Source: Dictyostelium discoideum (taxonomy: Eukaryota). From it: a DNA stretch of 64,000 nt. Location of the stretch: the NCBI GenBank assembly GCA_000004695.1, contig CM000150.2:3712001-3776000 (forward strand). Direction: 5' to 3'. The notes under the pieces are model-generated. The model was not told where the DNA came from, searched no databases, and saw nothing but the letters and a program-made list of their open reading frames with translations. Positions 2,699 to 58,134 of this stretch are shown in pieces; the stretch's first letter is position 1, and every line of letters starts with the position of its first letter. A program made the position numbers and the translations under genes.

Positions 2699-2764
<66 letters not shown>

Positions 2765-11385: not shown

Positions 11386-15938
<4,553 letters not shown>

Positions 15939-20229: not shown

Positions 20230-22083
20230 TAATCATATTCTTCTTAATAATAATATGTTAATTCCTTTAATAATATATAATGATACCATTACCAATCACC
20301 ATCACCATAGGACTTCTCCTTTGGAGCTATGGAAAACTGGGGTTTAATTACTTATCGTGAATCAATTTTATTAACATCAGATAAAACTACTCTTCGTACT
20401 AAACAAAGAATTGCTAATGTAATTGGTCATGAATTAGCACATCAATGGTTTGGTAATTTAGTAACAATGGAATGGTGGAGTCAATTATGGTTAAATGAAG
20501 GTTTTGCAACATTTATGGGATATTTATCAACTCATCATTTATTCCCAGAATGGGAAGTTTGGAATGATTTCTCTGATTGTTATAGAAATGGTGCACTTCG
20601 TTTAGATGCTTTAGAGAATTCACATGCAATTGAAGTACCAGTACGTCTTTCGTCTCAAATTTCAGAAATTTTTGATGCCATTTCTTATAACAAAGGTTCA
20701 TGTGTAATTCAAATGTTAGAGAGTCGTTTCGGTGAATCATTTAGAAAAGGTCTTCATCATTATTTGGATACTCATTCCTATAAGAATACCAATACCGATG
20801 ATCTTTGGGCTTCAATTTCATTGATTAGTGGTGTTGATGTTAAATCATTCATTGATTCATTCACAAAGTATCCAGGTTATCCAGTAGTTTCATTCACTCC
20901 AACTTCAACTGAAGGTACCTTTGAATTATCTCAAAAGAAATTTAGATTACAAGGTTCTGAGAAATCTGATGATCCAATTTGGAATTGTTTCATTAGATTC
21001 CAAACTGGTAATGCTGGTCAACATGAATTCATCTTGGAGAAGAAATCCGATACCGTAACAATTCCAAACTTTAAAAATGGTGATTGGATTAAACCAAACT
21101 ATGGTCAAACTGGTTATTTCCGTATTGCCTACTCACCTGAAACTATCAAAGCATTGGTTCCAAAGATTAAATCAATGGAAATTCCAACTCCAGATCGTTT
21201 AGGTTTATTATCAGATGTTTTCAATCTTTGCAAGGCACACACTTCTTCCATCTCTGCCTATATGGATTTAGTTTTGGCTTTTGAAGATGAAAAGGAAAGT
21301 AATGTTTGGGATTTCATTATCGATAGTCTTGGTTCTATTCAAACTTTAATTGAAGATCAACCATACTCAAGTAGATTCAATGAAATCTTTGTTCAACTTT
21401 TGAAACCACTTTCAAAACGTTTAGGTTTCGAGCCAACCAAAGGTGAACCATCTTCAGATACCTTGTTAAGAGATAAAGTAAACACTAAATTGGGTATGTT
21501 GGGTGATGCTGATATCGTTGCTGAATGTAAGAAAAGATTCGAAGCTTTCAAAGCAGACTCTTCAAGTTTACCATCAGATATTCGTTCTACAGTACTTGCT
21601 ACAATCGTAAAGAATGGTGGTGAAGCTGATCAACAAATCATCATTGATCAATATCTTAAATCTTCTTTAGTCGCTGAAAAGAATTCTTACCTTTTGGTAC
21701 TTGCTTTGGCTCCAAAAGAGGAATTGGTTGAAAAAGCCCTCAATTTCGCTTTATCTCCATCCGTTAGAAGTCAAGATAGTTATATGGTTTTCTTTACCCT
21801 CCCAAATCGTGTTCGTCAATTCGCTTGGGCTTACCTCACCAAAAACTTTAATCAAATCAACGAAACATTTAAAAACTCTCCTTTGTTTGGTCGTATCATT
21901 GGTAGTTGTCTCACCTCTAAAATGGATGATTCTCAATACAATGAAGTCGTCAACTTTTTCAAAGATCATCCAGTTCCAATTGCTGATCGTTCAATTAAAC
22001 AAGATTTAGAAATGGTTACAATTAATTCAAATTGGTTCAAAGCTTTTAATCAAGATTTATCAAATTGGATTCAATCAAAATAA
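19263..22083 (+). CDS. M1-family zinc aminopeptidase (puromycin-sensitive aminopeptidase-like), about 856 aa
   Basis: Three exons: 19263..19828 (donor GTAAGT), 19922..20153 (donor GTACGT) and 20311..22083; total 2571 nt. Motifs: GFYRS, FEATDARRAFPCFDEP, MSTYIVAFIVGEF, the GAMENWGLITYRE exopeptidase motif, and the HELAHQWFGNLVTMEWW...LWLNEGFA zinc-binding site (HEXXH-18-E). There is an alternative in-frame upstream start codon at 19170 (MKKINLISIIIFIISLVYFNF...) that would add a hydrophobic N-terminus; which start is used is unresolved. Confidence 0.85.
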
Positions 22084-22306
22084 AAATAAAATCTCTTACA
22101 ATGAAAGATCTTTGTTTTAATAATTGATAGTGATAAAAAAAAATGAGACGAAAACTAAAATAAACATCAAATTATTGTTTTCCTTTTTAAAACACAAATT
22201 TTATTTTTTTAAATTTATTGTTTTGGTTAAAAAAAAAATTGCTTTTTTTTTTTGTTTTTGCGTTCATCCAGAAGTATAGATTTATTTTTGGTAACATATG
22301 AATGTA

Positions 22307-27519: not shown

Positions 27520-28260
27520 CACTCAAAAATACACAAAATGATATAATAATGGTATTAAAATGTGAAATTTTCTTTGCTGTGATAAAAAATAATAAAAAAA
27601 AGTATGACCTATTAATTTTTATTATTGTTTTTTAAATAAACCTTAAGCTGTACTTATTAAGAAAGGCTGTTCCAGTGCTGTTTTTCGGCTAAATTTAATT
27701 CTCTTCTTTTTAGGTAGGTTACCAAAATCCTATTCTTTTACTTTTTTTTAAAAAATATACTATTGAATATTGTATTGGTAGATTAATAATACAGCACAGC
27801 AAAGAAAATCCAGCATTAAAATGACATTTAAAATAAAATGTAATTTAAATGATATTTTTAATATCATTTAAATACCATTAAAAATTAAATGATATTTTTA
27901 ATATCATTTAAATACCATTAAAAATCAAATGTCATTTAAATTTTATTTAAATGATATTATAATTAATAATATAGTTAAAATATAATTAGTAATATAATTA
28001 ATAATATAATTTAAATTACATTTACCATTAAAATGATCATTAAAATGAAAATTAATATTAATATTTTAAATGATATTATATTGTTAATTTTTATATAATT
28101 TAAAATTTAATTAGTAATAAAATTAATAATATAATTTAAATTACATTTACCATTAAAATGACAATTAAAATGAAATTTTAAGGGAAATTTAAAGTTAAAT
28201 TAAAAATTTCATTATTAAGAATATTTAAATGTTAACAAATTTGTTCTAAATTGTTTCATT
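27520..28260. repeat. Copy of an unnamed interspersed repeat with internal direct sub-repeats; the same element occurs inverted at 45790-46740
   Basis: The block 27600-27830 (gtatgacctattaattttt...ggctgttccagtgctgttt...ggtaggttaccaaaatcctattctttt...cagcacagcaaagaaaatccagcattaaaatgacatttaaaataaaatgtaatttaaatgatat...) is the reverse complement of 46240-46420 and 46640-46720. Internal sub-repeats (aaatgatatttttaatatcatttaaataccattaaaaat, twice) are shared. Confidence 0.7.
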
Positions 28261-39651: not shown

Positions 39652-40725
39652 ATGGGAAGAGTAGAAGATCAAATTAAAGATAATTATAATTCACTTTCAC
39701 ATGAAGGTGAAAGATTAAATAGAGAGGCAAAGATTGAATCTGAAAAATTAAAAAATAATGCTAAATTGGATGCAAAAGATATGAAAAAAGATATTGATGA
39801 ATCTGTTCATTCATCATGGGAAACTGTTAAAGAAGGTGCCAAAACCGTTCAAGATTACATTAGTAGTGGTATTGAAAGTGTAAAACATACAATTACAACT
39901 GAACCAGCCCAAAAAGATATGGAAAACTTAAAACATAATGTTAACCATAATTTAGAGGAAGCAGAGAAAGAAGGTTCATCCGTTTTAAATAACATTTCCA
40001 ATTTCTTTAAAGGTTCAGCAGAAGAAGCCAAATCTGAAGCTGAACGTATTGGTTATGAAGCTTACAAGGATGGTGACCAATTTGTTGGTGATGTACATAA
40101 AAACTTTAAAAGAACTGCCAATGAAACCCAAAAGGATGCCAATAGACTCACCTCTGATGTTAAGAATGAATCAAATAAAATCTATAAAGATATTAAGGAT
40201 GAATCAAATAAACTCTACAATGATGTCAAGGGTGAATCAAGTAAAATCTATAATGGTGCTAAAAAAGAAGGTTCCAAATTGGCTACCGATCTCAAGAAGG
40301 ATACTCAATACGTTGCAGATGAAACCAAAAAGATGGCAGCTGATCTCAAGAATAAAGCCGCTGATACCTATCAAGACCTTTCTCATGATGCCTCAAAGAA
40401 AGCCACTCAACTCAAAAAGAAAGCTAGTGAAACCCTTGATGAATCTGCCGATGCTATTGAACATCAATTCGATATAATGAAGAAAGATTTCAGACATCTC
40501 AATCAACGTAATGGTATGATTTGGGGAAGTATTGGTTTAATTGGTGGTGCAACTGCAACATCTTACCTTTTCCCATCTGCATCTCCAATGGCTAAATTCA
40601 CTTTTATTGCTGGTCTTGCAAGTTTAGGTGGTTACTATGGTCTCCATCAACCACACAATAAGATTGTTGATAATGCTTTCCACAAAGCAAACAATAAAAA
40701 GGAAGAATTAAAAAAGAAAATATAA
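39652..40725 (+). CDS. LEA-like or apolipoprotein-like amphipathic-repeat protein with a C-terminal hydrophobic hairpin (357 aa)
   Basis: A single ORF. It has degenerate 11-mer K/D/E/A/T-rich repeats (KNESNKIYKDIKDESNKLYNDVKGESSKIYNGAKKEGSKLATDLKKDTQYVADETKKMAADLKNKAADTYQDL...). The C-terminal GMIWGSIGLIGGATATSYLFPSASPMAKFTFIAGLASLGGYYGL is a Gly/Ala-rich hydrophobic segment of about 45 aa, typical of monotopic lipid-droplet or membrane hairpins. Confidence 0.55.
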   Translation: MGRVEDQIKDNYNSLSHEGERLNREAKIESEKLKNNAKLDAKDMKKDIDESVHSSWETVKEGAKTVQDYISSGIESVKHTITTEPAQKDMENLKHNVNHNLEEAEKEGSSVLNNISNFFKGSAEEAKSEAERIGYEAYKDGDQFVGDVHKNFKRTANETQKDANRLTSDVKNESNKIYKDIKDESNKLYNDVKGESSKIYNGAKKEGSKLATDLKKDTQYVADETKKMAADLKNKAADTYQDLSHDASKKATQLKKKASETLDESADAIEHQFDIMKKDFRHLNQRNGMIWGSIGLIGGATATSYLFPSASPMAKFTFIAGLASLGGYYGLHQPHNKIVDNAFHKANNKKEELKKKI

Positions 40726-41939: not shown

Positions 41940-42165
41940 CTATTAACAAAATAATTTTTTTTCATCAAACAATTAATGATATTAGTAGAAAATTAATATC
42001 TATCTTTTTTTAATTTATTTATTTTTATTTATTTATTTATTTTTTATCTTTATAACTAATTTCAATAATAATAAATTTATTTAAATTTTTAATATTTTTA
42101 ATTATTCAATACACTTTTTTTAAATTTTTAATAATTTTAAATTTTTAATATTTTTATTAATATCG

Positions 42166-42480
42166 ATTACATTGTAGTTGGTGGCGTCCATGCTGAGTAT
42201 GCAATAAGGGTAATGCTTTCAATTCTTGGCATTGAATTTGATGAAATTAAGAACAAACATCAAATGAAAATAATTAGAACCAAATTTCAAAAAATAATGG
42301 TTCAATTAAAATAATTATTTTTTATTTTACCAATCATCCCTCAGACACACACAGGGATCCAATAGTTGATATTATTAAATTTAGATTATTGATAGAATAC
42401 TTTAATAATAATTATAATAATAATAATGATAATAATATAATAGAATTTGATCATTCACTAATGAAACATTACTTTGGAGA
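42166..42480 (+). pseudogene. Fragment (copy 1) of a dispersed degenerate paralogue family (VVGG-HAEYAIRV ... FYF-HPSD...DPIVDIIKF-LLVEY...)
   Basis: About 90% identical to 50082-50400. It starts abruptly at gattacattgtagttggtggcgtccatgc and ends ...NNIIEFDHSLMKHYFGEA*. Relative to copy 2 it has a frameshift at caaaaaataatgg. Confidence 0.6.
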
Positions 42481-42834
42481 AGCTTAATGTCATTGGAATG
42501 ATATTTATATCACAGCATAAAAAAAAAAAAAAAATAATAAAAAATAAAAAAAATTAAATAAAATAAAAAAAAAATATAATTTTAAAATCTCTAACCTTTA
42601 CTCTTTACTTTGGGTTTTCAAAAAAATGTATATGGGTGTGAAGTTCGAATAGTTTTAATTCTTTATTTAATCAATATCTTAAATTAATTTAAGGTACATA
42701 ATTAAAATAAATTTAATAAATAATAAATAATTATTTAACTTTAATTATTTTTTTTATTTACTACTATTTTTTATTTTAATTTTATTATTATTATTCTTTT
42801 TATTTGATCGAGTCCGATGATTCAATTAATTATC

Positions 42835-43273
42835 TTGATTCTTCACATGTTAATCCTTTTGTTAGACTAAGATCATATACATTTGAGAAATTGCCATTTA
42901 AATAAACTTGACCACCAGTTACTATAAATTTAAAGTTTTACAATATATACCAATTGCAATATCATTACAAATACAATTACCAACGTGATCATTACATTTA
43001 TCAAATGGTGAATATTCGACTGAACAAGGAGCTCTATAATAAAATTCAATATATTAATGTTGCACCATTTCCATCTTATAATTTAATTTGTTGATTACCT
43101 TAACCTGCACCTATTGTACATATGATTTGTGGTTTATTACTTGAGTGACAATCAGTGGTGGTGATGTTATAATGTCTTGTGATTTTAATATTATAAATAT
43201 TTGAAAAATCACAAGACATTATAACATCACCACCACTGATTGTTGGTATTGATACTGATGATATTTGCATTTA
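42835..43273 (-). CDS. Candidate small Cys-rich protein gene (about 113 aa, three putative exons) that contains a 90-bp perfect palindrome in its first exon
   Basis: The minus strand reads ATG(43273) MQISSSVSIPTISGGDVIMSCDFSNIYNIKITRHYNITTTDCHSSNKPQIICTIGA, then a weak GTTAAG donor, then APCSVEYSPFDKCNDHVGNCICNDIAIG, a GTATAT donor, then VTGGQVYLNGNFSNVYDLSLTKGLTCEESR*. It has ten or more Cys and ordinary amino-acid composition, unlike the surrounding DNA. No signal peptide was found, and the splice sites are weak. Confidence 0.3.
43151..43240. repeat. A 90-bp perfect palindrome: 36-nt arms around an 18-nt spacer that is itself palindromic
   Basis: atcagtggtggtgatgttataatgtcttgtgatttt / aatattataaatatttga / aaaatcacaagacattataacatcaccaccactgat. 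The arms are exact reverse complements. Confidence 0.9.
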
Positions 43274-43289
43274 ATTGTTGATGTTGTTA

Positions 43290-43830
43290 TGTTGATGTGT
43301 ATAATAATGTTGTTAATGTTGTTGATGTATATTTATTTTATTTGGTGAGGTTGTAGTATGTTGATGTTGTTGGCGTTGTTGATGTTGTTGATGTTGTTGA
43401 TGTTGTTGATGTTGTTGATTTTGTTGATGTTGTTGATGTTGTTGGTGTTGTGGATTTTGTTGATTTTGTTGATGTTGTTGATTTTGTTGATGTTGTTGGT
43501 GTTGTTGATGTTGTTGATGTAATATATATATTGGTTATTATTTTATTTTATTTTATTTTATTGTTGTTGATGTTGTTGATGTTGTATATATATATTGGTT
43601 ATTATTTTATTTTATTTTATTTTATTTTATTTTATTTTATTTTATTTTATTTTATTTTATTTTATTTTATTTTATTTTATTTTGGTGTTGTTGATGTTGA
43701 TGTTGTTGATGTTGTATATATATATATATTGGTTATTATTTTATTTTATTTTATATTATTTTATTTTATTTTATTTTATTTTATTTTATTTTATTTTATT
43801 TTATTTTATTATATATATTACTATTATTTT
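43290..43830. repeat. Minisatellite blocks: (GTTGAT/GTTGTT)n alternating with (TTTTA)n arrays
   Basis: Read directly in the sequence. The ORFs 43450..43836 and 43595..43849 on the track are artefacts of these repeats. Confidence 0.85.
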
Positions 43831-44454
43831 ATTTAATTTTTTTATTTAATTTACATTTTGTACTATATAAAATGAGTTGACATAATATTCTAAAAGAGAA
43901 TACTAATTTTGTAAAAATTTATTTATATTAATTATTGAATATCCTATTATTTATTTATATTATATTTATTATTACTATGAAGAATTGAGTAACTAATTTT
44001 GGAAGAACCTCTTGGTCATTTATCCTCACCCTCGTTATTAATAATTTTTTTTTTTATAATTTTTTTTTTTATTATTTTCTTTTTTTTTTTTTTTTTGTAA
44101 TTGACCAATTTCCGAACCCATATTGAAATAAAATATAATCAAAAAAATAAAAAAATAAAAAAAATGTGCAAAGTGATTTATTATTTTAATTTAAAAAATA
44201 AAATAAAATAAAATAAAAATAATTAAACAAAAAATAAAAATGAATAATAAAAAATATTACATACATTCTGGTTTTTATTTTTTTGCAAAGTCGCAAACAA
44301 TATTTATATTTTCTTACCAAAAGTTAAAATAAATAAATTTATTAAACTAAGATTAAATATTCTTTATTTTTTAAATACATTAAAAAAAAATAAAAAAATT
44401 GTAATGTTTTTATAGTTTTTTTTATTAATGTTTTTTTTTTATTTTTATTTTTTA

Positions 44455-44870
44455 AACAAAACTTGTTAAGCCCATACAGTCCTTTTTTATTTTAAAAAAC
44501 AATTTGAAGTGAATGTGATAAAATTTTTTTTTTAAAAAAAAAACAAAACTTGAGATCAGCTTGTACAGTCTGTTTTAATAAAAAAACCTTGAGATGGCCC
44601 ATTTAAAAAAAAAAAAAAAAAAACTTAAAGGCCAGCCCTTGTAGTCCATTTTTTTTTTAAAAAAAAAAATACCTTGTATTAGCCCGGTTGGCACGAATAG
44701 ACCGTTCAGCCCATGTAGTCCTTTTTTTTTAAAAAAAAAATACCTTGTATTAGCCCGGTTGGTACTAATAGACCGTTAAGCCCATGTAGTCCATTTTTTT
44801 TTTAAAAAAATACAAATGCCTTGTATTAGCCTGGTTGGCACGAATAGACCCTTTAAAGGGATCATGGCTT
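44455..44870 (+). repeat. Array of about seven short GC-rich units (30-52 nt) each preceded by an A-run and followed by a T-run. Candidate array of RNA polymerase III-type small-RNA or SINE-like units
   Basis: The units are aaaacttgttaagcccatacagtccTTTTTT; aaaacttgagatcagcttgtacagtctgTTTT; aaccttgagatggcccaTTT; aacttaaaggccagcccttgtagtccaTTTTTTTTT; then three longer near-identical copies, A(10)taccttgtattagcccggttggcacgaatagaccgttcagcccatgtagtccT(9-10). They share a cttg...agccca/ttgtagtcc core and have a box-A-like segment, tagcccggttgg. They do not fold as a tRNA cloverleaf. Confidence 0.5.
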
Positions 44871-45066
44871 ATTATTGTAATAATGAAGATGATTGTAATG
44901 ATAATGATGTTGGATAAATCTACAATAAATTTTTTTTATTATTTTAGACATTAAATAATTAAACCATCTTTTTAATTTTTATTATTTATTTTAATTATTT
45001 ATTTATTTTTTACTATTACTATTTTTATAACGATTGGAGAGAACTAAAACAAAAAAAAAAAAAACA

Positions 45067-45101
<35 letters not shown>

Positions 45102-45697
45102 TATTAGATATACTATAGTATATTCTTCATTGACCATATCTGTTTATAGTAGAAATTGAAATGTTGTGGATTTCGAAGTTCATCATTAGTCTAGAGATCT
45201 AATGTGGTGAATTTGGATGTTCAACACCGCTCCAGAGAAATTAAATATACATTAAATAAATAAAATTAAATCAATTATAAAACAAATTGTATTATTTAAG
45301 TCCTTCTAGAGTACCACTCCTGTTACATTTTATAAATAATAAACTTATGAAATTCTTGTTTAATTCTTGAATTATTTTATAGATGTATTAAATTAAAATT
45401 ATAAAAAAAAAAAGTTAATGAAATTTCCAGCTTTTTCCACTTTTTGCATTTTTTTATTTTTTTATTTTTACTCCAAAAAATCAAATAACCCCCAAATATT
45501 AATTGGTTGAATAATTTTTTATATGTTTACAATTTTATGTTTTATTTATTTATAATCAAGTTTTATATCTTTATGGTTCTTTTTTTATCTATTACTAAAC
45601 CTGAAATATCCACCATTATCCCTTTACCTTCAATTTTTATTGGGTTTATTACACACTTAAGAAAGAATAACATAAATTCCCTGTTAAATATATTTAT

Positions 45698-45728
<31 letters not shown>

Positions 45729-45768
45729 GAACAAATAATTAGAGAGAGAGAGAGAAAGAGAGAATAAG
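45698..45768. repeat. Compound microsatellite, (AAGT)7 followed by (AG)n
   Basis: Read directly in the sequence. Confidence 0.9.
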
Positions 45769-45789
45769 AATACTTACATGTACTATGCC

Positions 45790-46740
45790 CGGGATAATAC
45801 CTAAAAGAAGAGAATTAAATTTAGCCAGAAGATTTATTAAAAAAAATAATAATAATTAATAAGTCATACTTTTTTTTTCATTATTTATGTTAGTAATACA
45901 TTGGCTCACAGCAAAGAAAATATCACATTTTCAATACCATAAAAATTAAAATTCTTTTTTACTGTAACATTTAATTTTCTTAAAAATGAAATTTTTAATT
46001 TTTAATTTACTTTAAAGTTTCATTTTAATGGTCATTTTAATGGTAAATGTAATTTAAATTATATTATTAATTATATTACTAATTATAATTTAACTAATAT
46101 TAATTATAATATCATTTAAATAACATTTAAATGACATTTAATTTTTAATGGTATTTAAATGATATTAAAAATATCATTTAAATTACATTTTATTTTAAAT
46201 GTCATTTTAATGCTGGATTTTCTTTGCTGTGCTGTATTATTAATCTACCAATACAATATTCAATAGTATATTTTTTAAAAAAAAGTAAAAGAATAGGATT
46301 TTGGTAACCTACCTAAAAAGAAGAGAATTAAATTTAACCAGAACGCGCTGGAACAGCCTTTCTTAATAAGTACAGCTAAAGGTTTATTTAAAAAACAATA
46401 ATAAAAATTAATAGGTCATACTTTTTTTTATTATTTTTTATCACAGCAAAGAAAATTTCACATTTTAATACCATTTAAATTACATTTAAATGTTCCAGTG
46501 AAAATGAAATTTAAATCTAGTTTAAAGTTTCATTTTAATGGTCATTTTAATGGTAAATGTAATTTAAATAATATTAATTACAATTTAAATGACATTTAAT
46601 TTTTAATGGTATTTAAATGATATTAAAACCATTTAAACTGCATTTTATTTTAAATGTCATTTTAATGCTGGATTTTCTTTGCTGTTCTGCATTATTTAAT
46701 CTACCAATACAATATTAAATAGTTTATTTTTTTTTTAAAA
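45790..46740. repeat. Two tandem copies, inverted relative to 27520-28260, of the unnamed interspersed repeat
   Basis: The units run approximately 45830-46330 and 46380-46740. Each contains cacagcaaagaaaat(a/t)tcacatttt...tttcattttaatggtcattttaatggtaaatgtaatttaaat...gctggattttctttgctgt(g/t)ctg(t/c)attat and ggtaacctacctaaaaagaagagaattaaatttaaccagaacgcgctggaacagcctttcttaataagtacagc. Confidence 0.7.
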
Positions 46741-46935
46741 AAATACTTACCAACTGGTGATAAAAAGAATATACATAAAAGTAATAAAAGAATTGTACCA
46801 CATGCACCCATTTTATATTTATTTTTTAGTTTTTTTTTATGTGAAAGTTTTTTTTAATTTAAAAATAGAATTTAATATGTTATAACTAATGATTGAAAAA
46901 AAAAAAAAAAAAAAATTATATTTGTTGGTTTAATC

Positions 46936-46966
<31 letters not shown>

Positions 46967-47692
46967 AATAAATAAATAAAAAGAAAAAAAAAAAAAAAAG
47001 GGGTGCGGTTTAGTTAAAAAAGTCAAAATCTAATTATTTGAAAAATTTTAATATGGGGTTAAAACACCGTTAACTTAAAGGATGACCAATATAATTCATA
47101 ATAATATAACCAAACATTAATCCTTTTTTTAGAAAATCCACTAAATATTTTTTTTTTTATTTTTTTATTTTTTTTTTTTAATATTTTTAATTTTTTTTGA
47201 TTTTTTTTTTTTTGATTTGGAAAAAAAGACTTTCAACTATTCTTTAAATCCCAGTGCTTTTCCGCTAATAAAATGAATATTCATTATTATAAAAATAACC
47301 TCAAATTTAAATTTTTTTTTTTTTTTTAATTTTATGTTTTTTATTTTTAATTTTTTTTTTTTTTTTTTTAAAATGATTTAATTATTTGAATAAAAATTTC
47401 AGATTCTCTCTAAGTTTATTTTAATAAACCAAATTTCAAATTTTTTAGGCTTTATTTTATAAAAAAAGATTATATTTTAAAATTAATGGGTATTTTAAAT
47501 TTCAAAACACATTCACCAATTCAACACAACACAAATTATTTTTTATCATTAAAATAATAAAAAATAATTTGATGATAACACACAAATTTTTTTTTTTAAA
47601 TAATCAATTAAATATAAAATGAAAAAGTTTTGCTTTTTGGTGGTGTAATGTTTAAACACAATATTTGTTGATTTTTTATTTTTTTTTTTTTT

Positions 47693-47757
47693 TTGTTTTT
47701 TTATAAGGTTGGATATAAAAATTTGAAATTTTTATATCCAACCTTATAAAATAACAA
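47693..47757. repeat. A 53-bp near-perfect palindrome (hairpin) centred on a single G
   Basis: ttataaggttggatataaaaattt g aaatttttatatccaaccttataa. The arms are exact reverse complements. A comparatively GC-rich 70-nt stretch follows it (ctaaagtgcgctggttggttagcaatggcctcg...). Confidence 0.85.
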
Positions 47758-48119
47758 CACTAAAGTGCGCTGGTTGGTTAGCAATGGCCTCGTTTAATTT
47801 CAAGTCATACATGTATGCATCAAAACAAAAAAATTTAAAAACTGATTGTCTGAAAATGTGATTCAGTTGCACGCATTTTTTTTCAAAAAAAAAAAACAAA
47901 AAAAAAGTTGAAAAAAAAATTAAAAAAAAAAAAAAAAATTCTTATAAAAGGGAAAAAAAAATAAATAAAATTTTTTAACGGTTTTTTTTTAAAAACTGCA
48001 AATAAAAATAAAATCTAGACTGTTTTGTGGTTATAATGAATATTTATTTATATTTCTTTGATTTTTTTTTTTTTAAATTTTTCTATATTTCCTCTTTTAA
48101 AAAAACTGGAAAAAACTGG

Positions 48120-48620
48120 AATAATTCAAATTAGTTGGGTTTGGAGGGTAAAATAAAAAAAATTATGATTGGAGAAACCTCTCCCCCTTTTTTTAAAAAA
48201 GAGCGTAGGGGAGGGTAGTTTGTATGAGAAATTGAACTTTTCCACCCTTCTTTTGAAATTATTTAGTAAATATGTTTCGAATTGATAACTTTGTGATGCA
48301 ATTTTGAGATATGGTTTAATAGAAAAATTCCAGTATCCCAATGATATATTATTATTAAAATGGTAAAATTGCAAGGAAGGAAGGAACGTCACTCACCCCT
48401 TTTCTTTGAAAAAAAAAAGTTCCTCTTTTTGAAAAATTTTAGTAAAAGTAAAGTTTTGAACTGATACCATTGAGGTGCATTTATGCTAAATATATATTTA
48501 AATAGAAGAATTCTAGGGGAATCTAATGACATATTTCGCTTTTAGTGTTATGGTAAAATAAAAAATTATGGGGTAAGGACCTTCTGTAGTTTTCATGAGA
48601 AACTGCCCTTGTCCCCATTT
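48120..48620. repeat. About 2.5 tandem copies of a degenerate unit of roughly 190 bp that carries G/C-rich inverted-repeat cores
   Basis: The units start at about 48148, 48360 and 48551 (tggtaaaat(a)n...ttatgg...). The cores include cctctccccc(T8)(A6)gagcgtaggggaggg, which is a hairpin. The shared tail motifs are gtttcgaattgataactttgtgatgcaattttgagatatggtttaatagaaaaattccag and gttttgaactgataccattgaggtgcatttatgctaaatatatatttaaatagaagaattctag. Confidence 0.6.
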
Positions 48621-48743
48621 TTTTTTTTTATTTAAAATTGGATATATAAATTTTTTATTTTTTTATTTTTATTTTTATTTTTTTATTGACAAAGACACTG
48701 ACATATCTGATATTTTCATTTTCATTTTTTTTTTTTCATTCTA

Positions 48744-48792
<49 letters not shown>

Positions 48793-49224
48793 CAACAATT
48801 TAATTTTAAAATGAATTTATTGATAAATAGAGCAATCAAAAATAAACAAAATGATATGAAAAATAAAAAAATTAATGTAATTATATATTTTTTTTAAATT
48901 TTTTTTTTTTTAACTAAAATTATTTTTTCAGAATTTAATTATTTTTCATTTTAACAACGAGAGGGAATATATTTAAATAAAATAATAGATATTAAAAAAA
49001 CCAAAAATTGGTTGAGTTGGAATATTTTTTATTTATTTTAATGTCAAATTTGAATGTTTGAATAAATAAAATTAAAAAAAAAAAAAAAAAAACAATTTAA
49101 TCAATTTTTTATTAGTTTTTATTTAAAATCTATTTTTTTTTAATAAAATATCTTCCCTACTCTTTTTTCTTTAAAATAAAAATAATTACAAAAAACATAT
49201 GTTTAAAAATTAAATTCTAAAAAT

Positions 49225-49272
<48 letters not shown>

Positions 49273-49699
49273 GGAAATTATAAGCCCACCAAGATTTTTT
49301 GAAACATATCAATAATAATTTTGTTTGAAATTTCAATCGAAAATATTATACTTTCATTTTAGTATCAGTGAATATTTTTACTTTATCAATCACCAATAAA
49401 TCCTCTTGGGTAGTGGATACAATTGGACAAGCTTTCACAATTAAAAAGTGCTTAGTCTCTACGCAATATTGGTGATATTTTTAAAATAGAAAACAATATT
49501 ATAATAGTTTTTTTATTTATAAGAAAAATAATTTAAAAAAAGAAAAATCAATCGATTTAGAATCAACAAAACTTTTATCATTAAAATATAATAATAATCC
49601 AATTAAAGGTTGGTTATAACGAGAAAGTATTCAATTTACTTTCGATAGATTGTTTATTAATTTTATAGTTTCAAATGGTGATCTAAATTTATTTTTGGA

Positions 49700-50900
49700 T
49701 TTCCATTCATAAGAGAAATGTGCAAAAACTTCATTTCAAATCTTAAATCCAAAACCTTTTCAACATTTTCATCTATCTTTGGTTATTTTCAAAATAATAA
49801 AAATAATAATAATAATAATAATAATAAATTAATATTAGTATACCAAATACCAAAAAGTACAAAGAATATACTTTTAGATAATAATGGTAGACAAGCATTC
49901 ACCATAAAATATTTTTTTCAATTTCTATAAATATATTGGTGATGTATATGATAGAGAAAACACAATCATAAGTCATTTATTAATTTTCATTCACAAATCA
50001 ATTTCTGGTGTTCATGAACCTATCAATGGTAACCATTTATATATTTTAATAATTGCTTTTTTATTTATAATTTAATTTTGCAGACGATTACGTTGTAGTT
50101 GGTGGCGTCCATGCCGAGTATGCAATAAGGGTAATTCTTTCAATTCTTGGCATTGAATTTGATGAAATTAAGAACAATCATCAAATGAAAATTATTAGAA
50201 CTAAATTTCAAAAAAATAATGGTTCAATTAAAATAATTATTTTTTATTTTACCAATCATCCCTCAGACACACACAGGGATCCAATAGTTGATATTATTAA
50301 ATTTATATTATTGGTAGAATACTTTAATAATAATAATTGCAATAATAATAATATTATTATAAAATTAGATCAATCACTGTTGAAATCATTTATCAAAAAT
50401 TATCAAATTTTGTTCAAAAACCAAGTAGTGGTTGTGTGATGATTTAATAAATCATATTAATTTTACTGATAATGATGAATGCAATCATAGTTTCGTATAT
50501 TCACCAATCATCAATTTTAACATTTTCGAATCAATTTTAAAACCAACAGATTCAAAAATAACAAGTATTGATGATTCAACTTCCAGTGATTACCAATTTT
50601 AAAAAATGGAATTTTTAAAATTTCATTCAATAATATTATAACTTCAATTAAAACAACTTCAAGCAAATCACCGTCAACTAAATGGAATAACAAAGCAATC
50701 AAATATCACCCAAATAATGAAACAAAGCTTGCTACCAATGCTATATCTAGCATTTGAATATTTAGCAACTTTTATTTCGCCATTTTGGTCTGTCGAAAGA
50801 TCTTTCGACAAATTAAAAGGGCAAAACAAAAGTTATCAACTATTCAAAGAATAGACATAGTATCGATGCAAATTTAACTTTAGTTGATCTTGTCAAATTA
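49700..50900 (+). pseudogene. Copy 2 of the dispersed degenerate paralogue family; it shows frameshifts and premature stops
   Basis: The ORFs 49718..49930 and 50185..50439 are in different frames. The stretch ...YIGDVYDRENTIISHLLIFIHKSISGVHEPING, an intron-like segment, then DYVVVGGVHAEYAIRVILSILGIEFDEIKNNHQMKIIRTKFQKNNGSIKIIIFYFTNHPSDTHRDPIVDIIKFILLVEYF... is collinear with copy 3 (55965-56500). Its 3' part (50440-50900) is a decayed equivalent of copy 3's Cys-rich and zinc-finger region. Confidence 0.6.
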
Positions 50901-51158
50901 AATTAAATAATAAATAAAATAAAATAATTTGTTATTATTATAATTAAAAAAAAAAATAAAATATATTAAAATTTAATCAAATTATACCTTAATAATAAAA
51001 AAATAAAAAAAAAAAAAAGTCTACGAAATGTATTAAATCTACATAAAACCAATCGAGTATTGATTTGTAATAATATTTTTTTTTATTATATATATATAAT
51101 AGAGAATTTTCAAATATTGATATCTCTTTGTGATTTTTTTTTTTTTTTTAATAATAAT

Positions 51159-53064
51159 TTAAGTGAATTGATTTTCATTATTAAAAACATGAAGTTGTGG
51201 TTGTTGTTGAGGAGATGATTGGGCTTGTGGATTTTCATTATTAAAAACATGTTGTTGATGTTGTTGTTGTTGTTGTTGTTGTAAATGAACCTGTTGTTGT
51301 TGATGTTGATTTTGTTGAATTTGAATTTGGAATTGTTGCATTTGAATTAATTGATTCAATTGAGCCAACATAATTGATTGATTATCCTCAAGTGATTTAA
51401 TTTTAAGTTGTAAAGATTCAATGATTTTAATACTACTATTATCATTGTCATCACTTTTTGTTATCGTTGTAACATCACAATTGGATAGAGTTGATTTAAT
51501 CTCTTCAATGATTGAACTTTGTTGTGATGGTTGACTATCTTGACATTGAGATTGAATTGCTCTACGTTCTCTTCTCATTCTACTTAAAGTTTTAGCATAT
51601 TCGATATATTTCACACAAAACAATGCTTCCTTACTATTAAACATTGATCTATTTTGTGATATACTCATACTAGATTGCCATCTCCATCTTCTCCAAACCA
51701 ATTGAATTAATCTAGCTGCTGAATCTCTTTCTTTCTTTTGTGCTTCAACTAATGATACTAAATTTAATATTGGTCTTTGATGACTCGTTGCTTGAGTTAA
51801 TCTTGCAAAACTTTCAATTACAAATGATAATAATAATAAACCAAAAATACATGCAACCTAAATAAATATTATATATAAAAAATATATATATATATATATA
51901 TTAGTAATGATTTCTTTAAAATTTTAAATAATAAATATTTAAAAATGAATATTTACAATTGCAGCAAATCTACCACCAAAAGTTTGTGGATTATATTCAT
52001 CATAGGTATCAGTTGGCCAACCAGTGATCATAGAGAGAAAAGAGATATAGACAGAAACAGCAAAAGTGAATAGTTCATTTCTCTCCCTTTCAAAGACATA
52101 CATCCATTGACCAGTAACAGCCAATGTGAAAATTGTGAATGTTAAATAAGTGAGAATTGGTGCTATTGAAATGATATATTTTAAACTTAGTGTCCAATTG
52201 AATTTTGGAGCTACATCACGTAACAACTGCTTTTGAATATGGAATCTAAGTTTATAAACTGGACTGAAATCACGAAGAATTCTACAAAATAAATATAATC
52301 TTAACCACATTAATAAACCCCATTTGGAATCTTTATACCATGCATTCTCACCAGATACAAATGGTAATGGTTGTAATGAACAAACTAATATTTCACACCA
52401 AAATAATGGACCTAATTTAGTTGATTTTAAAACATTTACTCTTGTAACCCTAAATCCTCTTGCTCTCTTTGTTAACCAATCATGTGTTACCTCTGATAAT
52501 AATAATAAATAATAATCAACTAACTGAGTACCTAAAAAAAATAAAAAAAAAAATAAAAAAGTTAAAAAACAAATATTAACATAAATAAATACAAAAAAAA
52601 AAATACATACATAAAATTAAATTTAAAATGAATATGATTGCTCTTAATATTTTTGTTGATTTATTAATTTCCAATGAATGATTTTCAACACTCCATGATA
52701 ATTGTAATTCTGTGCACATTAACGAAACACCAATCATGCCATTAATCATAATGAGTACATATCTATGTCTAAGGATTCTATCTGTATTTTCTGATCTTAT
52801 TTCACTAAAATCATTTTTTTGGAAAAATACCAAAGGTTGTGAAAAGAAGAGAAAAAAGAGGAGAGAAAAAAAAAAAAAAAAAAAAAAAAAGCATTATGTT
52901 AATATTAAATCTTTTTTTTTTTTTTTTTTTTTTTTTTCCCAGTTCGAAAAATTGTTCTCTTACCTATATTTGTCAATATTACTTAATGATTTTTCTAAAA
53001 TTGGTAATTCTGATTCAGAATCTTTTAACCTTTGCAGATTGATAAGTGCTTTTCTTCTTGACAT
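51159..53064 (-). CDS. SK/IK-like (KCNN-family) six-transmembrane cation channel with a calmodulin-binding-domain-like tail, about 522 aa. The pore loop lacks the canonical GYG K+ selectivity filter
   Basis: Four exons on the minus strand: 53064..52964 (donor GTAAGA, phase 2), 52804..52611 (donor GTATGT, phase 1), 52531..51957 (donor GTAAAT) and 51857..51159; total 1569 nt. SK-channel signature blocks: SLMCTELQLSWSVENHS (SK S1: VIETELSWGLYSKDS), PLFWCEILVCSLQPLP, GLLMWLRLYLFCRILRDFSPVYKL (SK S4: [22 protein letters not shown]), TIFTLAVTGQWMYVFERE, and the pore and S6 stretch FAVSVYISFLSMITGWPTDTYDEYNPQTFGGRFAAIVACIFGLLLLSFVIESFARL. The tail has SAARLIQLVWRRWRW followed by a poly-Q region. Confidence 0.75.
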
Positions 53065-53267
53065 TATAAATTATAAAAAAAAAAATAGCCTTGACACTAC
53101 TACCCCCAATGTAACGAAATAATAATTATATGGTGTGGTTGCTATAGTAATAATATATAGTTATAATAACTTGATTTGTTGCTTCTTTTTTTTTTTTTTT
53201 TTTTTTTTGATTTCTTATGTAATTATTAGATTGTTGCGTATATAAATAAAAATATATATATATAAAT

Positions 53268-53287
53268 GTTTGTGTGTGTGTGTGTGG
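53268..53287. repeat. (TG)10 microsatellite
   Basis: Read directly in the sequence. Confidence 0.9.
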
Positions 53288-54206
53288 TATGAAAGTGTTC
53301 TATTTAAATTTATTTTTTATTTTTTATGTGTATGGTGTGTATGATGAATTATTTGTTTTTTTATTTATTTATTTTTATTTGTTTGTTTGTTTATTTTGTT
53401 TATTTACTGTGTCTTTAATAAAATGTAATCCTATTAAAAAAACAAGATGTTAAATATAAAAATACCCATACATAGTGGTAGTAGTGTAAGAAAATAAAGA
53501 AAGAGAAGAAAAAGGAGATAAAATTGTTGAAATACTATATATAATTATATAGTTATATATAGCAAAAATAAATAAAATAATAAAAAAAAAGGTTAAGCGA
53601 ATAATAAAAAAAAAAAAAAAAAATTAAAAAAAAAAAAAAAATTAAAAAAAAAAAAAAAAATTATTTTTAAAATTTGACCGATAACACTCTATTTCTAGGA
53701 GTGTAAAAAAAATAAAAAAAAATAAAAAAAAATAAAAAAAATAAAAAAAATAAAAAAAAAATAAAAAAAAGGTTATTTTCTGTGATAAAATAAAAAAAGA
53801 AAAATAAAAAATAAAAAAAATAAAAAATAAAAAATAAAAAAAAAATCAATTATGTTAAAAATTTGTTTCAAAGAAATAAAAGGATAATGATTAATGGTAT
53901 TGTTAATTAATTCCTACCTATCTGTGTCAATACATATATTCATCATATACAAATCAGTTAATAAATAAATTTATTATAAATTTGTTTTATAAATACACAA
54001 TGACGTAAATTATAATATGAATAAAATAAAATAATAAATAATTTAAAAAAAAAAAAAAAAAAAAACATTCACTATAAAAGTAAGATAAAAAATAAAATTA
54101 TTTATTTATAAAATAATATAAAAAGTAATAATAAAAGAAATAAAATAATAATAATAAAAATAATAATTGAAAAAATAAAAATAAAAAAAATAAAAATTAA
54201 ATAATA

Positions 54207-54797
54207 ATGGATCAGCCACAACAACAACAACAAAATCAAGTTATAGATAATCAAGGTAGTAGTAATAATAATAGTAGTAGTAATAATAATAATAATAATG
54301 GTGGAATTAAGCATAAAAAAAGATTTCAAGTTGAAAATGCAATAATGGGAATGATATTTTTTGGATTATCAATATTTTTAATAATTTATGGTATAGTTCA
54401 AATTGCAGTTGCAAGTGGTAAAGATGATATTTCATCACGTCATACATGGGCATTTACAGTTAATGGTATTTTCTGTTTAATTACTGGTTTTCATGGATTC
54501 TTTTTATTATTCCATAAAAGAGGTAGTGCAAAACATCATGTATTGTTAAATATTATATTGGTAGCTCAAGCATTCATTCTATTTATCATTTATTCAGCAT
54601 TGGTTCACCGTTATATCAATAGAGATTGTGGTGGTGAATTTTATCAAAATCCATATTGCGTTCACGATCATAAAGTTTATATAGGAATTTCATTGGCTAT
54701 ATTTTGGGCTGTCAATATCTTTACTTTACCATTCTCTTTAATTTGCTCAATTATTCATTTGAGAAATCAAAATCATCATAATGTTGAAAATGTTTAA
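54207..54797 (+). CDS. Small four-transmembrane membrane protein (196 aa) with an N-terminal poly-Q/N tract; function unknown
   Basis: A single ORF with four hydrophobic helices (IMGMIFFGLSIFLIIYGIVQIAV; WAFTVNGIFCLITGFHGFFLLF; VLLNIILVAQAFILFIIYSALV; IGISLAIFWAVNIFTLPFSLICSII). Its amino-acid composition is non-repetitive. Confidence 0.55.
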   Translation: MDQPQQQQQNQVIDNQGSSNNNSSSNNNNNNGGIKHKKRFQVENAIMGMIFFGLSIFLIIYGIVQIAVASGKDDISSRHTWAFTVNGIFCLITGFHGFFLLFHKRGSAKHHVLLNIILVAQAFILFIIYSALVHRYINRDCGGEFYQNPYCVHDHKVYIGISLAIFWAVNIFTLPFSLICSIIHLRNQNHHNVENV

Positions 54798-55513
54798 ACG
54801 CACACACATACAACACAAATCACAAAGATAAATAAATCCTTTCAAATTCAATCGAATATATTTCTTTTTTTTTTTTTTTTTTATTTTAAAAAATTAAAAA
54901 ATTAAAAAATAAATATAAATAAAAATAAATTCAAAAATTTTTTTTTTTTTTTTTTCTTATTATTTTGTATAAATTTAATATGTTTTATTTTATTTTTGTT
55001 GATTAATTATAATTGTAAAAATATTAAATTGATTTGAAATTTTTAATTTAAATGACTGATGAATGTTTCAAAACTTTTATCATTGAATTAAAATATAATT
55101 ATATATTAAAGGCTGGATATATATTAAAAACTCTAATTGATTTTAATAGATTGAAAAATTAGATTATAATTTCTGATGGTGATTAAAGTTTAGTTGATAC
55201 TGAGTTGTGGTATACAAATATCACTAATGAATAGAACCTCAAAAAACAACCTTGTATAACACATATCAACACCAATTGAACTTTATTCTCCCAACAAAAA
55301 ATTAAAAATTCAATAAACAATCCATCAAAAGAAATTGCAATTTTTCCTCTATATCCAACCTTTAATATAATTGTTGCATATGGCAAAAGTTTTGTTGTTT
55401 CTAAAGCTATGATATTATTATTATTATTATTAATATTATTTTGTAAATATGAAAAAAAAAAAAAAAAAAAAAAATTTATTATTTTACAATAAATCATCTA
55501 TTTTTATAATAAA

Positions 55514-55807
55514 ATGTCAACCAATATAAATTTTAAAGACATGAGTTCTTATAAATATTTATCAAAACTTAAAGTTATTGATAAAGATTTTATAATTAAA
55601 TGTTTAAACATGGCGAGTAAAAAGGATGAACTTTCTTTAATTTTAGATTCAACAATAGATTTACCATTTAAGTTTAGTGATATTAGTATAACTGGTTGGA
55701 AATATAATGAAAAGATTCCATTTACATTGGATTACCAAAAATTTGACGAGTATACCATTTATCTACGTCGATTAGCCATAAATCTCCATATGCAACCAAG
55801 AATTTAA
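55514..55807 (+). CDS. Hypothetical 97-aa ORF immediately upstream of copy 3 of the paralogue family; it may be that family's 5' exon
   Basis: The peptide MSTNINFKDMSSYKYLSKLKVIDKDFIIKCLNMASKKDELSLILDSTIDLPFKFSDISITGWKYNEKIPFTLDYQKFDEYTIYLRRLAINLHMQPRI has non-repetitive composition. Confidence 0.3.
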   Translation: MSTNINFKDMSSYKYLSKLKVIDKDFIIKCLNMASKKDELSLILDSTIDLPFKFSDISITGWKYNEKIPFTLDYQKFDEYTIYLRRLAINLHMQPRI

Positions 55808-55839
55808 TAAACAACTACTCCATTCATTAGAGAACTTAT

Positions 55840-57000
55840 AAAAGAATCTATTTTAAACTTAAAATCAAATAAATTTTCAACATTTTCATCAGTTTTTCAA
55901 AGTTTTCATCATAATTCCAATAAAAGGATAATTTTTTTAAACCAATCAAAAAAATAAAGATTGGATGAAATTATATTACTATGGTTACGAACAATCTTCA
56001 GTTATAAAAGAAGTATTTGAATTTTACAAATATATTGGTGATGAATATGAAAGAGAAAACACAATAGTAATGGATCTTTTATTTTTTATTGGTGGAACCA
56101 ACTCTGGTATTCAAGATTCAATCAATGGTAATCACATTTACATTTTAATGATAGTTTTTTTATTCTTAATAGAATTGGCCGATTATTTTATCGTGGTTGG
56201 TGGTGCTCACGCTCAATAAGCAATTAAGTTAATATTATCAATTTTGAAAATTGAAGTTGAACAAATTCAAAACAATCATAAAATGAAATTTATAAGAATC
56301 AAATTTCAAAGCAATAATGGTTCATTTAAATCAATCATTTTTTATTTCTCCAGCTATCCATCAGATTTAAGTATAGATCCAGTCATTGATATCATTAAAT
56401 TTAGATTATTGGTAGAATACTTGATTTATCAAATAATAATAATAATCAAAATAATAATAATAATATCATTGAATTTGAAGAATCATTAATTAATTCAGTA
56501 TATCAAAGTTTATTTCAATTTGTACAAAAACCAAGTATTAGTTGCGTTAATTGTGGTGCTTATGAAAGTGTAACCAATGATTGCTGTCACAGATTCGTAT
56601 ATTCACCAATCTTTGAATTTAATATTTTCAAATCAATTTAAAAATCAACACCTACAACTACTACAACAACAACAACTGATAATTCAATTTCTAATCAATT
56701 GGATTCAACAATATTAAAAAATGGTATTTTTAAAATTTCATTCAATAACCTTGAAAAACCATCACCAAAAGAACAATTTTTAGCACAATATCCAAGATTA
56801 AAGATTTCATCAATTTTTAATACAATCAAATCTTCATTTCAATCAACAGATAATAAGCATTATTGTGGTTATTTAAAATGTAATTCAAGTTTTGATGATG
56901 TTGACAGGTTATCACTCCACATGGTGAAAGAACATCCATGTGATGAAACACCACCTGGTTCAAAATTCTTTATTATTAGAGGTGGATCAAACAATTGAAC
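55840..57000 (+). pseudogene. Copy 3, the most complete, of the dispersed paralogue family. It ends in a C2H2-like zinc finger. An in-frame stop and a microsatellite frameshift suggest a pseudogene or sequence variant
   Basis: The ORFs 55965..56219, 56244..56489 and 56699..56998 are collinear with copy 2. The stretch ...VVGGAHAQ*AIKLILSIL has TAA where copies 1 and 2 have TAT (Tyr). A +/-1 frameshift sits inside an (ATA/AAT)n run. Downstream are SISCVNCGAYESVTNDCCHRFVYSPIFEF and ...HYCGYLKCNSSFDDVDRLSLHMVKEHPCDE (C-x4-C...H-x4-H). Confidence 0.55.
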
Positions 57001-57161
57001 AACAAAGATTAAATCAACCAACTGAAGAAATTATTTATTTTTTTTTTTTTTTTATTCAAATAATTATTGCTTTTTTTTTTTTTTTTTTCAAGGTTTTTAG
57101 TATAATTAATTAATAAATTTATTTTTATTTTTTTATTTTTTTTATCAATTATTAATAAAAT

Positions 57162-58134
57162 TTATTGATAATCATATGATTTTGTACGAGGAGCACGACA
57201 AATACGAATAATTAAAAACAAGGCGAAAAGCATACAAATAAATTCGATGACGCCAATTGAAACAGCAGCAGCACCAACCAAATAAAGATTTGAAGAGATT
57301 TTTGAAGAGATTACACTATCACAAGTATCGGTATATTTTGGAATACCTTTTGAATCCTTTGGACAAAGTAAAGGGTTTCTAGAACTGGTTGAATTCCAAT
57401 AGCAACATTTTAAGAAATTTTCTAATTTCAAAATTGTAGAATTCTTTGGACCATTTGATACATCTTCCCAAGCATTTCCAATTTGTTTAACAACATCATC
57501 ATTATGTAATGTTAAAGCTTTACCACCAACACCAATTAATGCAACTAAAATAATTAACATTAACATTGTATAAATTACCAAACCAACCAATTTCTCTTTT
57601 CCTGCCACAAAACAGCCAATAACTGTTAATATAACAAAGAAAATACCAATAACCAATACACCTGCTGGTGCTCCAGTTGTTAAATTTGAAAGTGCAGCTG
57701 AAGCTTTTGAAACTTTTGTAAAATCTTTAAAATTTGAAAAAAAGCTAACACCAATACTACCAATAATTACTTTTTTTTTTAAAAAATAAAAAAAAGAAAT
57801 AAAAGAAGTTTTTAAAAAAGAAAAATAAAAAATAAAAAAAAGAAAAATAAAAAAATTAATAATTAATATTTTTGAATAAATATAATAATAAATTTTATTA
57901 ACTAATAGTTCTTACCTAAAACTAAACCAAGAACCTATAATAATAATCAAAAAAAAAAAAAAAAAAATAAAAAAAAAATAAAAAAAAAAAAAAATAAAAA
58001 AAAAAATTAATAATAACAATTTATTTAATAAAATAATTAAATATAAAGCTTACCCAAAGAATAGTATTAAATGCAATTAATGGAACTTTAAGATATCTTG
58101 GAGTATTAGGAATTAAATTTGTTGTATCAACCAT
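57162..58134 (-). CDS. Tetraspanin, about 235 aa
   Basis: Three exons on the minus strand: 58134..58054 (donor GTAAGC), a 19-nt micro-exon 57934..57916 (GTTCTTGGTTTAGTTTTAG, phase 1; donor GTAAGA) and 57769..57162; total 708 nt. There are four transmembrane helices. The large extracellular loop carries the CCYWNSTSSRNPLLCPKDSKGIPKYTDTCDSV Cys pattern (CC...C...C). Confidence 0.8.

Follow-up and report, generated by a model that had tools for sequence, protein, structure and literature searches.

The window analysed here is a 64,000-nucleotide stretch of Dictyostelium discoideum chromosome 1 (contig CM000150.2, positions 3,712,001 to 3,776,000), and the question raised by its positions 42,166 to 57,000 is what kind of sequence gave rise to the three related, degenerate copies found there. 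An original prediction made from the sequence had offered two answers, a fast-decaying gene family or the protein-coding part of an uncharacterised mobile element. The copies were mapped by blastn of individual regions against the window, a nhmmer DNA profile, sensitive blastn and three-frame translations, and the syntenic locus in other assemblies was reached by using the neighbouring proteins as anchors. The copies are very probably non-processed pseudogenes and fragments that derive from one single-exon C2H2 zinc-finger gene restricted to a single clade; they form a cluster where a recent rearrangement has its junctions, and the AX4 annotation takes them for several small genes. An uninterrupted allele of this gene, an open reading frame (ORF) of 581 codons (L010 13011 to 11266), was found in the wild D. 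discoideum isolate L010 (GCA_054859355.1), at the position of copy 3 and adjoining tspB.

Broken copies of a single gene

The three plus-strand copies were related far beyond chance, as had been proposed. By blastn, copies 1 and 2 were 88.6% identical (42119-42470 vs. 50036-50390, E 1e-127), copies 2 and 3 were 72.3% identical (49904-50633 vs. 56004-56748, E 3e-115), and copies 1 and 3 were 75% identical (42171-42465 vs. 56190-56493, E 2e-54); the common peptide motifs YIGD.Y.RENTI, VVGG.HA.YAI, PSD and DIIKF.LLVEY were seen in the three-frame translations. Copy 3 is a near full-length pseudogene of the 581-codon gene, running from an ATG at 55514 to approximately 57034-57040. Copy 2 (49563-50641) is a heavily degraded pseudogene that covers nucleotides ~120-1285 of the coding sequence (CDS) and lacks the zinc-finger end, and copy 1 (42164-42470) is an internal fragment, nucleotides ~673-980 of the 1746-nt CDS, with both ends missing. 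The limits of these copies were revised: copy 3 starts at 55514 and not at 55840, and the homology of copy 2 stops at 50641 and not at 50900; the sequence following copy 2 (50641-50900) was unrelated to the family and holds a palindrome.

Two additional pieces had been missed. Fragment 4 (55175-55409, minus strand) belongs to the N-terminal region and lies head-to-head with copy 3 (nhmmer E 3.7e-14, profile positions 125-377), in line with a blastn match of 73% identity between 49508-49671 and 55457-55299, and it was also found in isolate L010. In that isolate, the ~1.1 kb between fragment 4 and the ATG of the intact gene (L010 13012-14320) contains ~90-140 bp that duplicate the 3' flank of a neighbouring transmembrane (TM) protein gene, so that this flank stands on both sides of fragment 4. 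The other piece, 49373-49518 (plus strand), just upstream of copy 2, may possibly be a fifth fragment, briefly repeating the part of the family around '...YIGD...ENxI', as weakly suggested by a faint nhmmer match (E 3e-4); it forms a direct repeat with 49933-49985 (72% identity) and matches the isolate L002 at 77% over 53 nt. Every detectable piece of the family lay within one 15-kb interval, and matches in the protein searches reported below came from the same locus only. The family is therefore clustered, and not dispersed as first described.

Lesions in copy 3 were scored against the intact L010 allele, to which it was between 80% (blastn) and 87% (global alignment) identical. One of these lesions is an exact 85-bp micro-inversion (55733-55817, now reading on the minus strand) that scrambles codons ~74-102; the reverse complement of this segment equalled the uninverted sequence of L003, a diverged Logan contig from a D. 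discoideum-like sample, at 84 of the 85 positions, and the uninverted state was also present in isolates L002, L004 and L010. Further downstream, copy 3 carries a 2-nt deletion near 55948, an in-frame TAA at 56217-56219 (codon 236, ancestral TAT, the change already noticed in the original prediction), a frameshift in an AAT run near 56423-56432, another TAA at 56639, a 2-nt deletion at 56973, and a 3' truncation after CDS nucleotide ~1550 that removed fingers 2 and 3. Copy 2, with many frameshifts and a TAA at 50073, was far more degraded than copy 3. The expectation of a frameshift or stop in every copy was thus borne out several times over in each. A ciliate-type reassignment of stop codons (TAA read as Gln) was considered on account of the in-frame TAAs and dropped, given that neighbouring genes have long ORFs under the standard code and the source is Dictyostelium.

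These lesions are real and not sequencing errors, because they were identical in an independent assembly and the TAA at 56217 was shared with L003. The independent assembly (L001, GCA_054883475.1, also D. discoideum) matched the locus at 99.7% identity and copies 2 and 3 at 100%. The Logan contig L003 was 94% identical and carried the TAA at 56217 together with further lesions of its own, without the 85-bp inversion; the presence of the same stop in such a diverged sequence indicates that the pseudogene state is old.

The lesions also account for the way in which the locus has been annotated. In AX4, four short 'hypothetical protein' genes were called on family sequence: DDB_G0269862 (49718-49930) inside copy 2, and DDB_G0269866 (55514-55807), DDB_G0269868 (55965-56219) and DDB_G0269870 (56283-56998; 'C2H2-type domain-containing protein' in UniProt) as pieces of copy 3. 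A fifth model of 45 aa, DDB_G0270674 (50717-50854), lies just past copy 2 and was essentially read out of the palindrome. None of the five identifiers was mentioned in the publications reached by a literature search. If these pieces were still functional, either as separate small genes or spliced or recoded into one product, the calling of ORFs and gene models over them both in AX4 and in a newer annotation of another strain would be explained, as would the complete identity of copies 2 and 3 between the two D. discoideum assemblies. This is nevertheless very unlikely. The models are the open stretches between the lesions of one 581-codon ORF: DDB_G0269866 takes its tail and stop from the inverted 85 bp, and DDB_G0269868 ends at the TAT-to-TAA stop. 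The newer annotation skips the lesions by means of introns of 23-200 nt, which are inventions that bridge them, another isolate has most of both copies deleted, and the complete identity reflects the close relatedness of the strains, already evident in the 99.7% across the locus.

The intact allele and its relatives

The L010 ORF reads in frame through a 45-nt hydrophobic stretch (…INGNHIYILIIVFIFLIELADDY…) that had been taken for a short intron-like segment. The same stretch was in frame and free of stops in copy 3, L003 and L004, and splice signals were missing from two of the sister copies (no AG in L004, no GT in L002). The stretch is therefore coding and the gene has a single exon.

The ratio of nonsynonymous to synonymous substitution rates (dN/dS) between lineages was 0.42-0.56 overall and 0.33-0.44 for the N-terminal 330 codons, as Nei-Gojobori estimates that are rough in AT-rich DNA. 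Ratios of this size are typical of a genuine, fast-evolving coding gene under weak constraint, and they indicate that the parent was under protein-level constraint and was once a real gene. Collinear homology to an intact 581-aa ORF, real disabling lesions and a constrained parent, the marks of non-processed pseudogenes, are thus all found at this locus, and the decaying gene family of the original prediction is confirmed, with three broken copies and a known intact relative. Synonymous divergence (dS) was 0.13 between copies 1 and 2 and 0.75 between copies 2 and 3, and the pairwise values grouped copy 1 with copy 2, and copy 3 with the L010 and L002 copies, next to the L004 copy: ((c1,c2),((c3,L010,L002 copy),L004 copy)). 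The closest relative of copy 1 is therefore copy 2, and copy 1 carries substitutions of the already degraded copy 2.

The close relationship between copies 1 and 2 bears on another suggestion, that copy 1 was a retroposed copy with its 5' end deleted. In its general form, this reading holds that copy 1, and perhaps others, are processed, 5'-truncated copies of the mRNA made by the machinery of a long interspersed nuclear element. Copy 1 is indeed short and has an abrupt 5' boundary, and an A-run lies ~50 nt downstream of the end of its homology. Yet the 3'-terminal ~770 nt of the CDS are missing from it too, so it cannot be a 5'-truncated complementary DNA anchored at its poly-A tail; no poly-A adjoins it, and A-runs are everywhere in DNA of ~20% GC, the base composition of the whole window. 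The loss of introns is unusable as a criterion because the parent is intronless, and copy 1 is most similar to the already degraded copy 2, whose substitutions it shares. Retroposition is thus extremely unlikely, and copy 1 was rejected as a retroposed sequence.

The protein encoded by the L010 allele ends in three C2H2 patterns, C-x4-C-x12-H-x3/4-H, of which the middle one has a longer Cys-Cys spacing. Copy 3 keeps the first of them (CGYLKCNSSFDDVDRLSLHMVKEH, 56864-56935, plus strand, C-x4-C-x12-H-x4-H), which agrees with the finger that had been predicted at the end of the family. This finger and the three L010 patterns follow the zinc-ligand spacing C-x2-4-C-x12-H-x3-5-H, the middle L010 finger with the longer Cys-Cys spacing just mentioned. 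Against PDB sequences, the L010 protein gave weak matches to the finger arrays of GLI (E 0.0015) and YY1 (E 0.006, residues 466-578). In the Pfam scan no C2H2 model reached its gathering score (zf-C2H2, 14.2 bits against a cut-off of 25.2; Zap1_zf1, 19.9-23.7 against 27.2), and the AlphaFold2 model, built from alignment rows of the window only, had a pLDDT (predicted local distance difference test) of 31, a value useless for inferring a fold. The protein resembles C2H2 proteins of the Kruppel/TFIIIA type, such as YY1 and GLI, in its three C-terminal fingers and in the weak alignment of the array. It differs from them in its N-terminal region of ~460 residues, which has no counterpart in any zinc-finger family or other protein searched, and for which a full HMMER profile search found no homologue among 1.84 billion representative proteins. 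The protein is most likely a DNA-binding or regulatory one, judging from the finger patterns.

Distribution among isolates and the possible mobility of the unit

In the full HMMER profile search of the same 1.84 billion proteins there were seven matches, all of them ORF pieces of this locus, which came from D. discoideum, from two isolates designated 'D. cf. discoideum', or from Logan contigs. Clusters of the AX4 fragments at 90% identity were each confined to one AX4 contig. In protein-level searches of clustered representatives, paralogues that share 50-90% identity would go unnoticed within the clusters. A scan of metagenomes with a conserved 35-nt pattern gave no matches. In D. citrinum (two assemblies), D. 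firmibasis and D. dimigraforme, the sequence up to 10 kb away from tspB held no family copy, and the FNIP-repeat gene with which D. firmibasis fills the equivalent gap showed no similarity to the family on comparison. A homologue search based on a word index returned nothing even though proteins matching the query were in the collection; it was treated as a false negative and not used as evidence, the candidate list having probably been filled by poly-Asn and poly-Thr words (in two of the three queries), so that negatives of this search are unreliable for Dictyostelium proteins. As far as can be seen from these sequence comparisons, the family appears to be confined to the discoideum clade. 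The 'cf.' isolates are possibly cryptic sister species of D. discoideum, and the citrinum clade was placed outside the discoideum-related clade, in a study whose assemblies combined Nanopore and Illumina reads (Holland et al. 2025, PMC12745789).

Within this clade, the state of the locus differed from isolate to isolate. In L004 (cf. discoideum) a copy was present at the copy-3 site, in which the only lesion was a T4-versus-T5 difference in run length, amounting to one frameshift, and the copy-2 site held a palindromic remnant (L004 5068-5357). In L002, the other cf. isolate, a copy was present at the copy-2 site with a 2-nt deletion and possibly also a 1-nt shift of a T-run in the hydrophobic stretch, nothing of the family was present at the copy-3 site, and an inverted C-terminal family fragment lay farther upstream. 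Most of both copies had been lost in L009, another D. discoideum isolate. The copies that are retained, disabled or removed thus vary from lineage to lineage, a case of birth-and-death evolution. At the 'empty' copy-3 site of L002, a plus-strand piece (~11060-11150) that resembles tspB coding sequence (…NPSLCPKDSKSIP…) was read by eye and is an inverted partial duplicate of the neighbouring tspB.

This pattern speaks for the other answer, namely an uncharacterised mobile or selfish element of ~2 kb, specific to this clade, whose coding part the unit would be and which would hop nearby and leave truncated and inverted fragments behind. L002 has a near-intact unit at its copy-2 site and L004 has one at its copy-3 site; the unit would consist of a short promoter plus one ORF, its homology between these two isolates extending from ~140 bp upstream of the ATG to ~50-60 bp past the stop. 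Its presence varies among isolates, its fragments, found on either strand, lie at rearrangement junctions, and it appears abruptly in one clade without homologues elsewhere. Known transposable elements of Dictyostelium (TRE, DGLT-A, DIRS-1, Skipper, DDT/Tdd, thug) are likewise repeated, leave truncated fragments in both orientations and vary in presence between strains.

On the other side, all copies detected lie in one 15-kb interval, and each of the 90% identity clusters of AX4 fragments was on a single AX4 contig. Neither terminal inverted or direct repeats nor target-site duplications were found around copies 2 and 3 or at the L002/L004 unit boundaries, where only A/T low complexity was present; the inspection of the flanks that had been proposed was carried out around these copies and beside copy 1, with the results just given and no poly-A tail at the latter. 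No similarity to transposases, reverse transcriptases or integrases was detected in Pfam, among PDB sequences or in the HMMER library of 1.84 billion proteins. The 'empty' sites showed no clean points of excision or insertion and contained, instead, remnants as well as small duplications of unrelated sequence. Several Dictyostelium retroelements target tRNA genes, and there were no tRNA genes in the window. The family therefore differs from the known elements in lacking similarity to transposase, reverse transcriptase, integrase and gag, in lacking long terminal repeats, terminal inverted repeats, poly-A tails and association with tRNA genes, and, as far as the protein-level searches show, in being restricted to one locus. 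The part of the original prediction that concerned a mobile-element protein is consequently not sustained, and it is very unlikely that the unit is mobile. There is similarly little chance that a clade-restricted ~2-kb cassette of promoter and zinc-finger ORF represents an undescribed selfish or mobile type that moves between adjacent sites and seeds fold-back duplications, micro-inversions and larger rearrangements; such a cassette, if real, would account for the different sites occupied in the two cryptic sister species and for the presence of family pieces at every junction. Of the contrary outcome named in the original prediction, in which the copies would be annotated members of a known single-exon gene family with intact ORFs elsewhere and no mobility signatures, one half was observed (intact single-exon ORFs elsewhere, no mobility signatures) and the other, a named or annotated family, was not.

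The reading as pseudogenes of a local gene has several points to answer. The restriction to one locus rests on protein-level searches, whole Dictyostelium genomes not having been scanned at the DNA level. The function of the protein would follow from the finger patterns, given that no Pfam model passes its threshold and that the AlphaFold model is uninformative, and a dN/dS near 0.5 also fits a long period of relaxed constraint. In addition, the near-intact copy of L002 occupies the copy-2 site and groups by dS with copy 3, not with copy 2, and that of L004 is found at the copy-3 site. This difference in site requires either gene conversion plus loss or the relocation of a ~2-kb unit; gene conversion between two paralogous sites followed by loss explains it equally well as mobility.

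Rearrangement junctions, and the meaning of the locus

The family occupies a gene-poor interval between a gene for a 357-aa protein (39652-40725) and tspB (57162-58130, minus strand), and the gene order around it has changed recently. D. firmibasis and D. dimigraforme have, one after the other, the 357-aa gene, g5xx, the TM gene, a segment syntenic to 46.7-47.4k of the window, and tspB. The counterpart of this segment (46714-47414) lay between tspB and the TM-protein gene in D. citrinum as well as in these two species, and next to it the annotations of D. citrinum and D. firmibasis have Pmp3 gene models. In the discoideum clade, by comparison, the Pmp3 block is inverted and has moved to the other side of the g5xx-TM pair. 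Family pieces are found at each of the three junctions: copy 1 at one, copy 2 and fragment 5 at another, and fragment 4 and copy 3 at the third. In both D. citrinum assemblies (L005 and L006), the block from g5xx to eL42 (window ~41k-61k) is inverted with respect to D. discoideum, D. firmibasis and D. dimigraforme, which marks this interval of chromosome 1 as an inversion hot spot within group 4.

Remnants of Pmp3 genes were located at 45757-46811 (minus strand) by tblastn with the D. firmibasis Pmp3 and by synteny maps, with exon remnants at 46749-46811 and 45757-45830. An inverted duplicate of 524 bp and 88.6% identity (27548-28071 vs. 45998-46475) has a Pmp3-like exon 2 inside each arm (27647-27724 and 46302-46376), and a further repeat pair links 45829-46283 with 46379-46743. 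The duplicated exon 2 and the exon remnants indicate that the Pmp3 genes here were duplicated and have partly decayed. In the gene-poor interval between copy 1 and these remnants there are tandem repeat arrays at 43275-43852 and 44633-44853, the first of which yields spurious ORFs of 84-128 aa rich in F, I, L and Y.

Directly after copy 2 lies the palindrome, of 126 bp (50738-50863), with 63-nt arms that are 76% complementary and a perfect 18-nt centre (GTCGAAAGATCTTTCGAC). It is probably a fold-back repair scar and is not demonstrably family sequence. Together with the palindrome of L004 (5068-5357), the clean micro-inversion and the way in which fragment 4 and copy 3 stand head-to-head, it points to fold-back or template-switch repair. 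Breakpoints of inversions and other rearrangements that are flanked by inverted duplications are explained by models of staggered breaks or template switching, and the present locus is similar to such breakpoints in its copies and inverted fragments at the junctions of the Pmp3 block and around the g5xx-TM block and in its palindromic scars.

The most probable history begins with a young one-exon gene encoding a protein of ~581 aa, made of an orphan N-terminal region of ~460 aa and three C-terminal C2H2 fingers. This gene was duplicated locally, in the same and in the opposite orientation, where a rearrangement of chromosome 1 specific to the clade has its junctions, the copies having presumably been produced by fold-back or template-switch repair at the DNA level rather than by transposition. 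The gene is dispensable and fast-evolving, subject to birth and death across lineages; in AX4 every copy has died through nonsense mutations, frameshifts, the 85-bp inversion and truncations, and annotation has turned the surviving ORF pieces into four short genes. Such a history is similar to that of other non-processed pseudogenes and birth-and-death clusters in its local DNA-level duplicates, its independent lesions, the intact allele in a relative and the lineage-specific retention of copies. It differs from them in that the parent is a clade-restricted orphan gene and not a member of a large established family, and in that the copies, accompanied by fold-back palindromes and a clean micro-inversion, stand at the junctions of a rearrangement.

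The genes of the window identified by exact protein look-ups (AX4 chromosome 1) included those of the TM protein, in the DDB_G0270980 region, imidazolonepropionase (DDB_G0269854), tspB and eL42. Two further repeats were observed outside the family interval. An inverted repeat of 584 bp and 98.5% identity (16340-16923 vs. 21514-22097), one arm of which covers the 3' end of an aminopeptidase ORF (20329-22083), looks like a very recent inverted segmental duplication. Two large minus-strand ORFs (2667-6221 and 12815-15421; 1184 and 868 aa), with a TM segment and Asn runs, are paralogous, with 70-75% nucleotide identity over several hundred bp.

The locus reveals no new kind of element or mechanism and is a case of ordinary gene birth and death. 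For the annotation of D. discoideum, this means that DDB_G0269862, DDB_G0269866, DDB_G0269868 and DDB_G0269870 all stem from dead copies of one gene and call for re-annotation as pseudogenes, and that DDB_G0270674 is a model placed on the palindromic scar beside copy 2. The intact 581-aa allele of the wild isolate defines a previously unrecognised gene of the discoideum clade with three C2H2 fingers. The locus also exemplifies small-scale structural mutation at recently formed rearrangement junctions, in the form of an exact 85-bp inversion, fold-back palindromes and head-to-head fragments, and it offers a compact natural example of the birth and death of an orphan gene, with presence/absence polymorphism among isolates and cryptic species.

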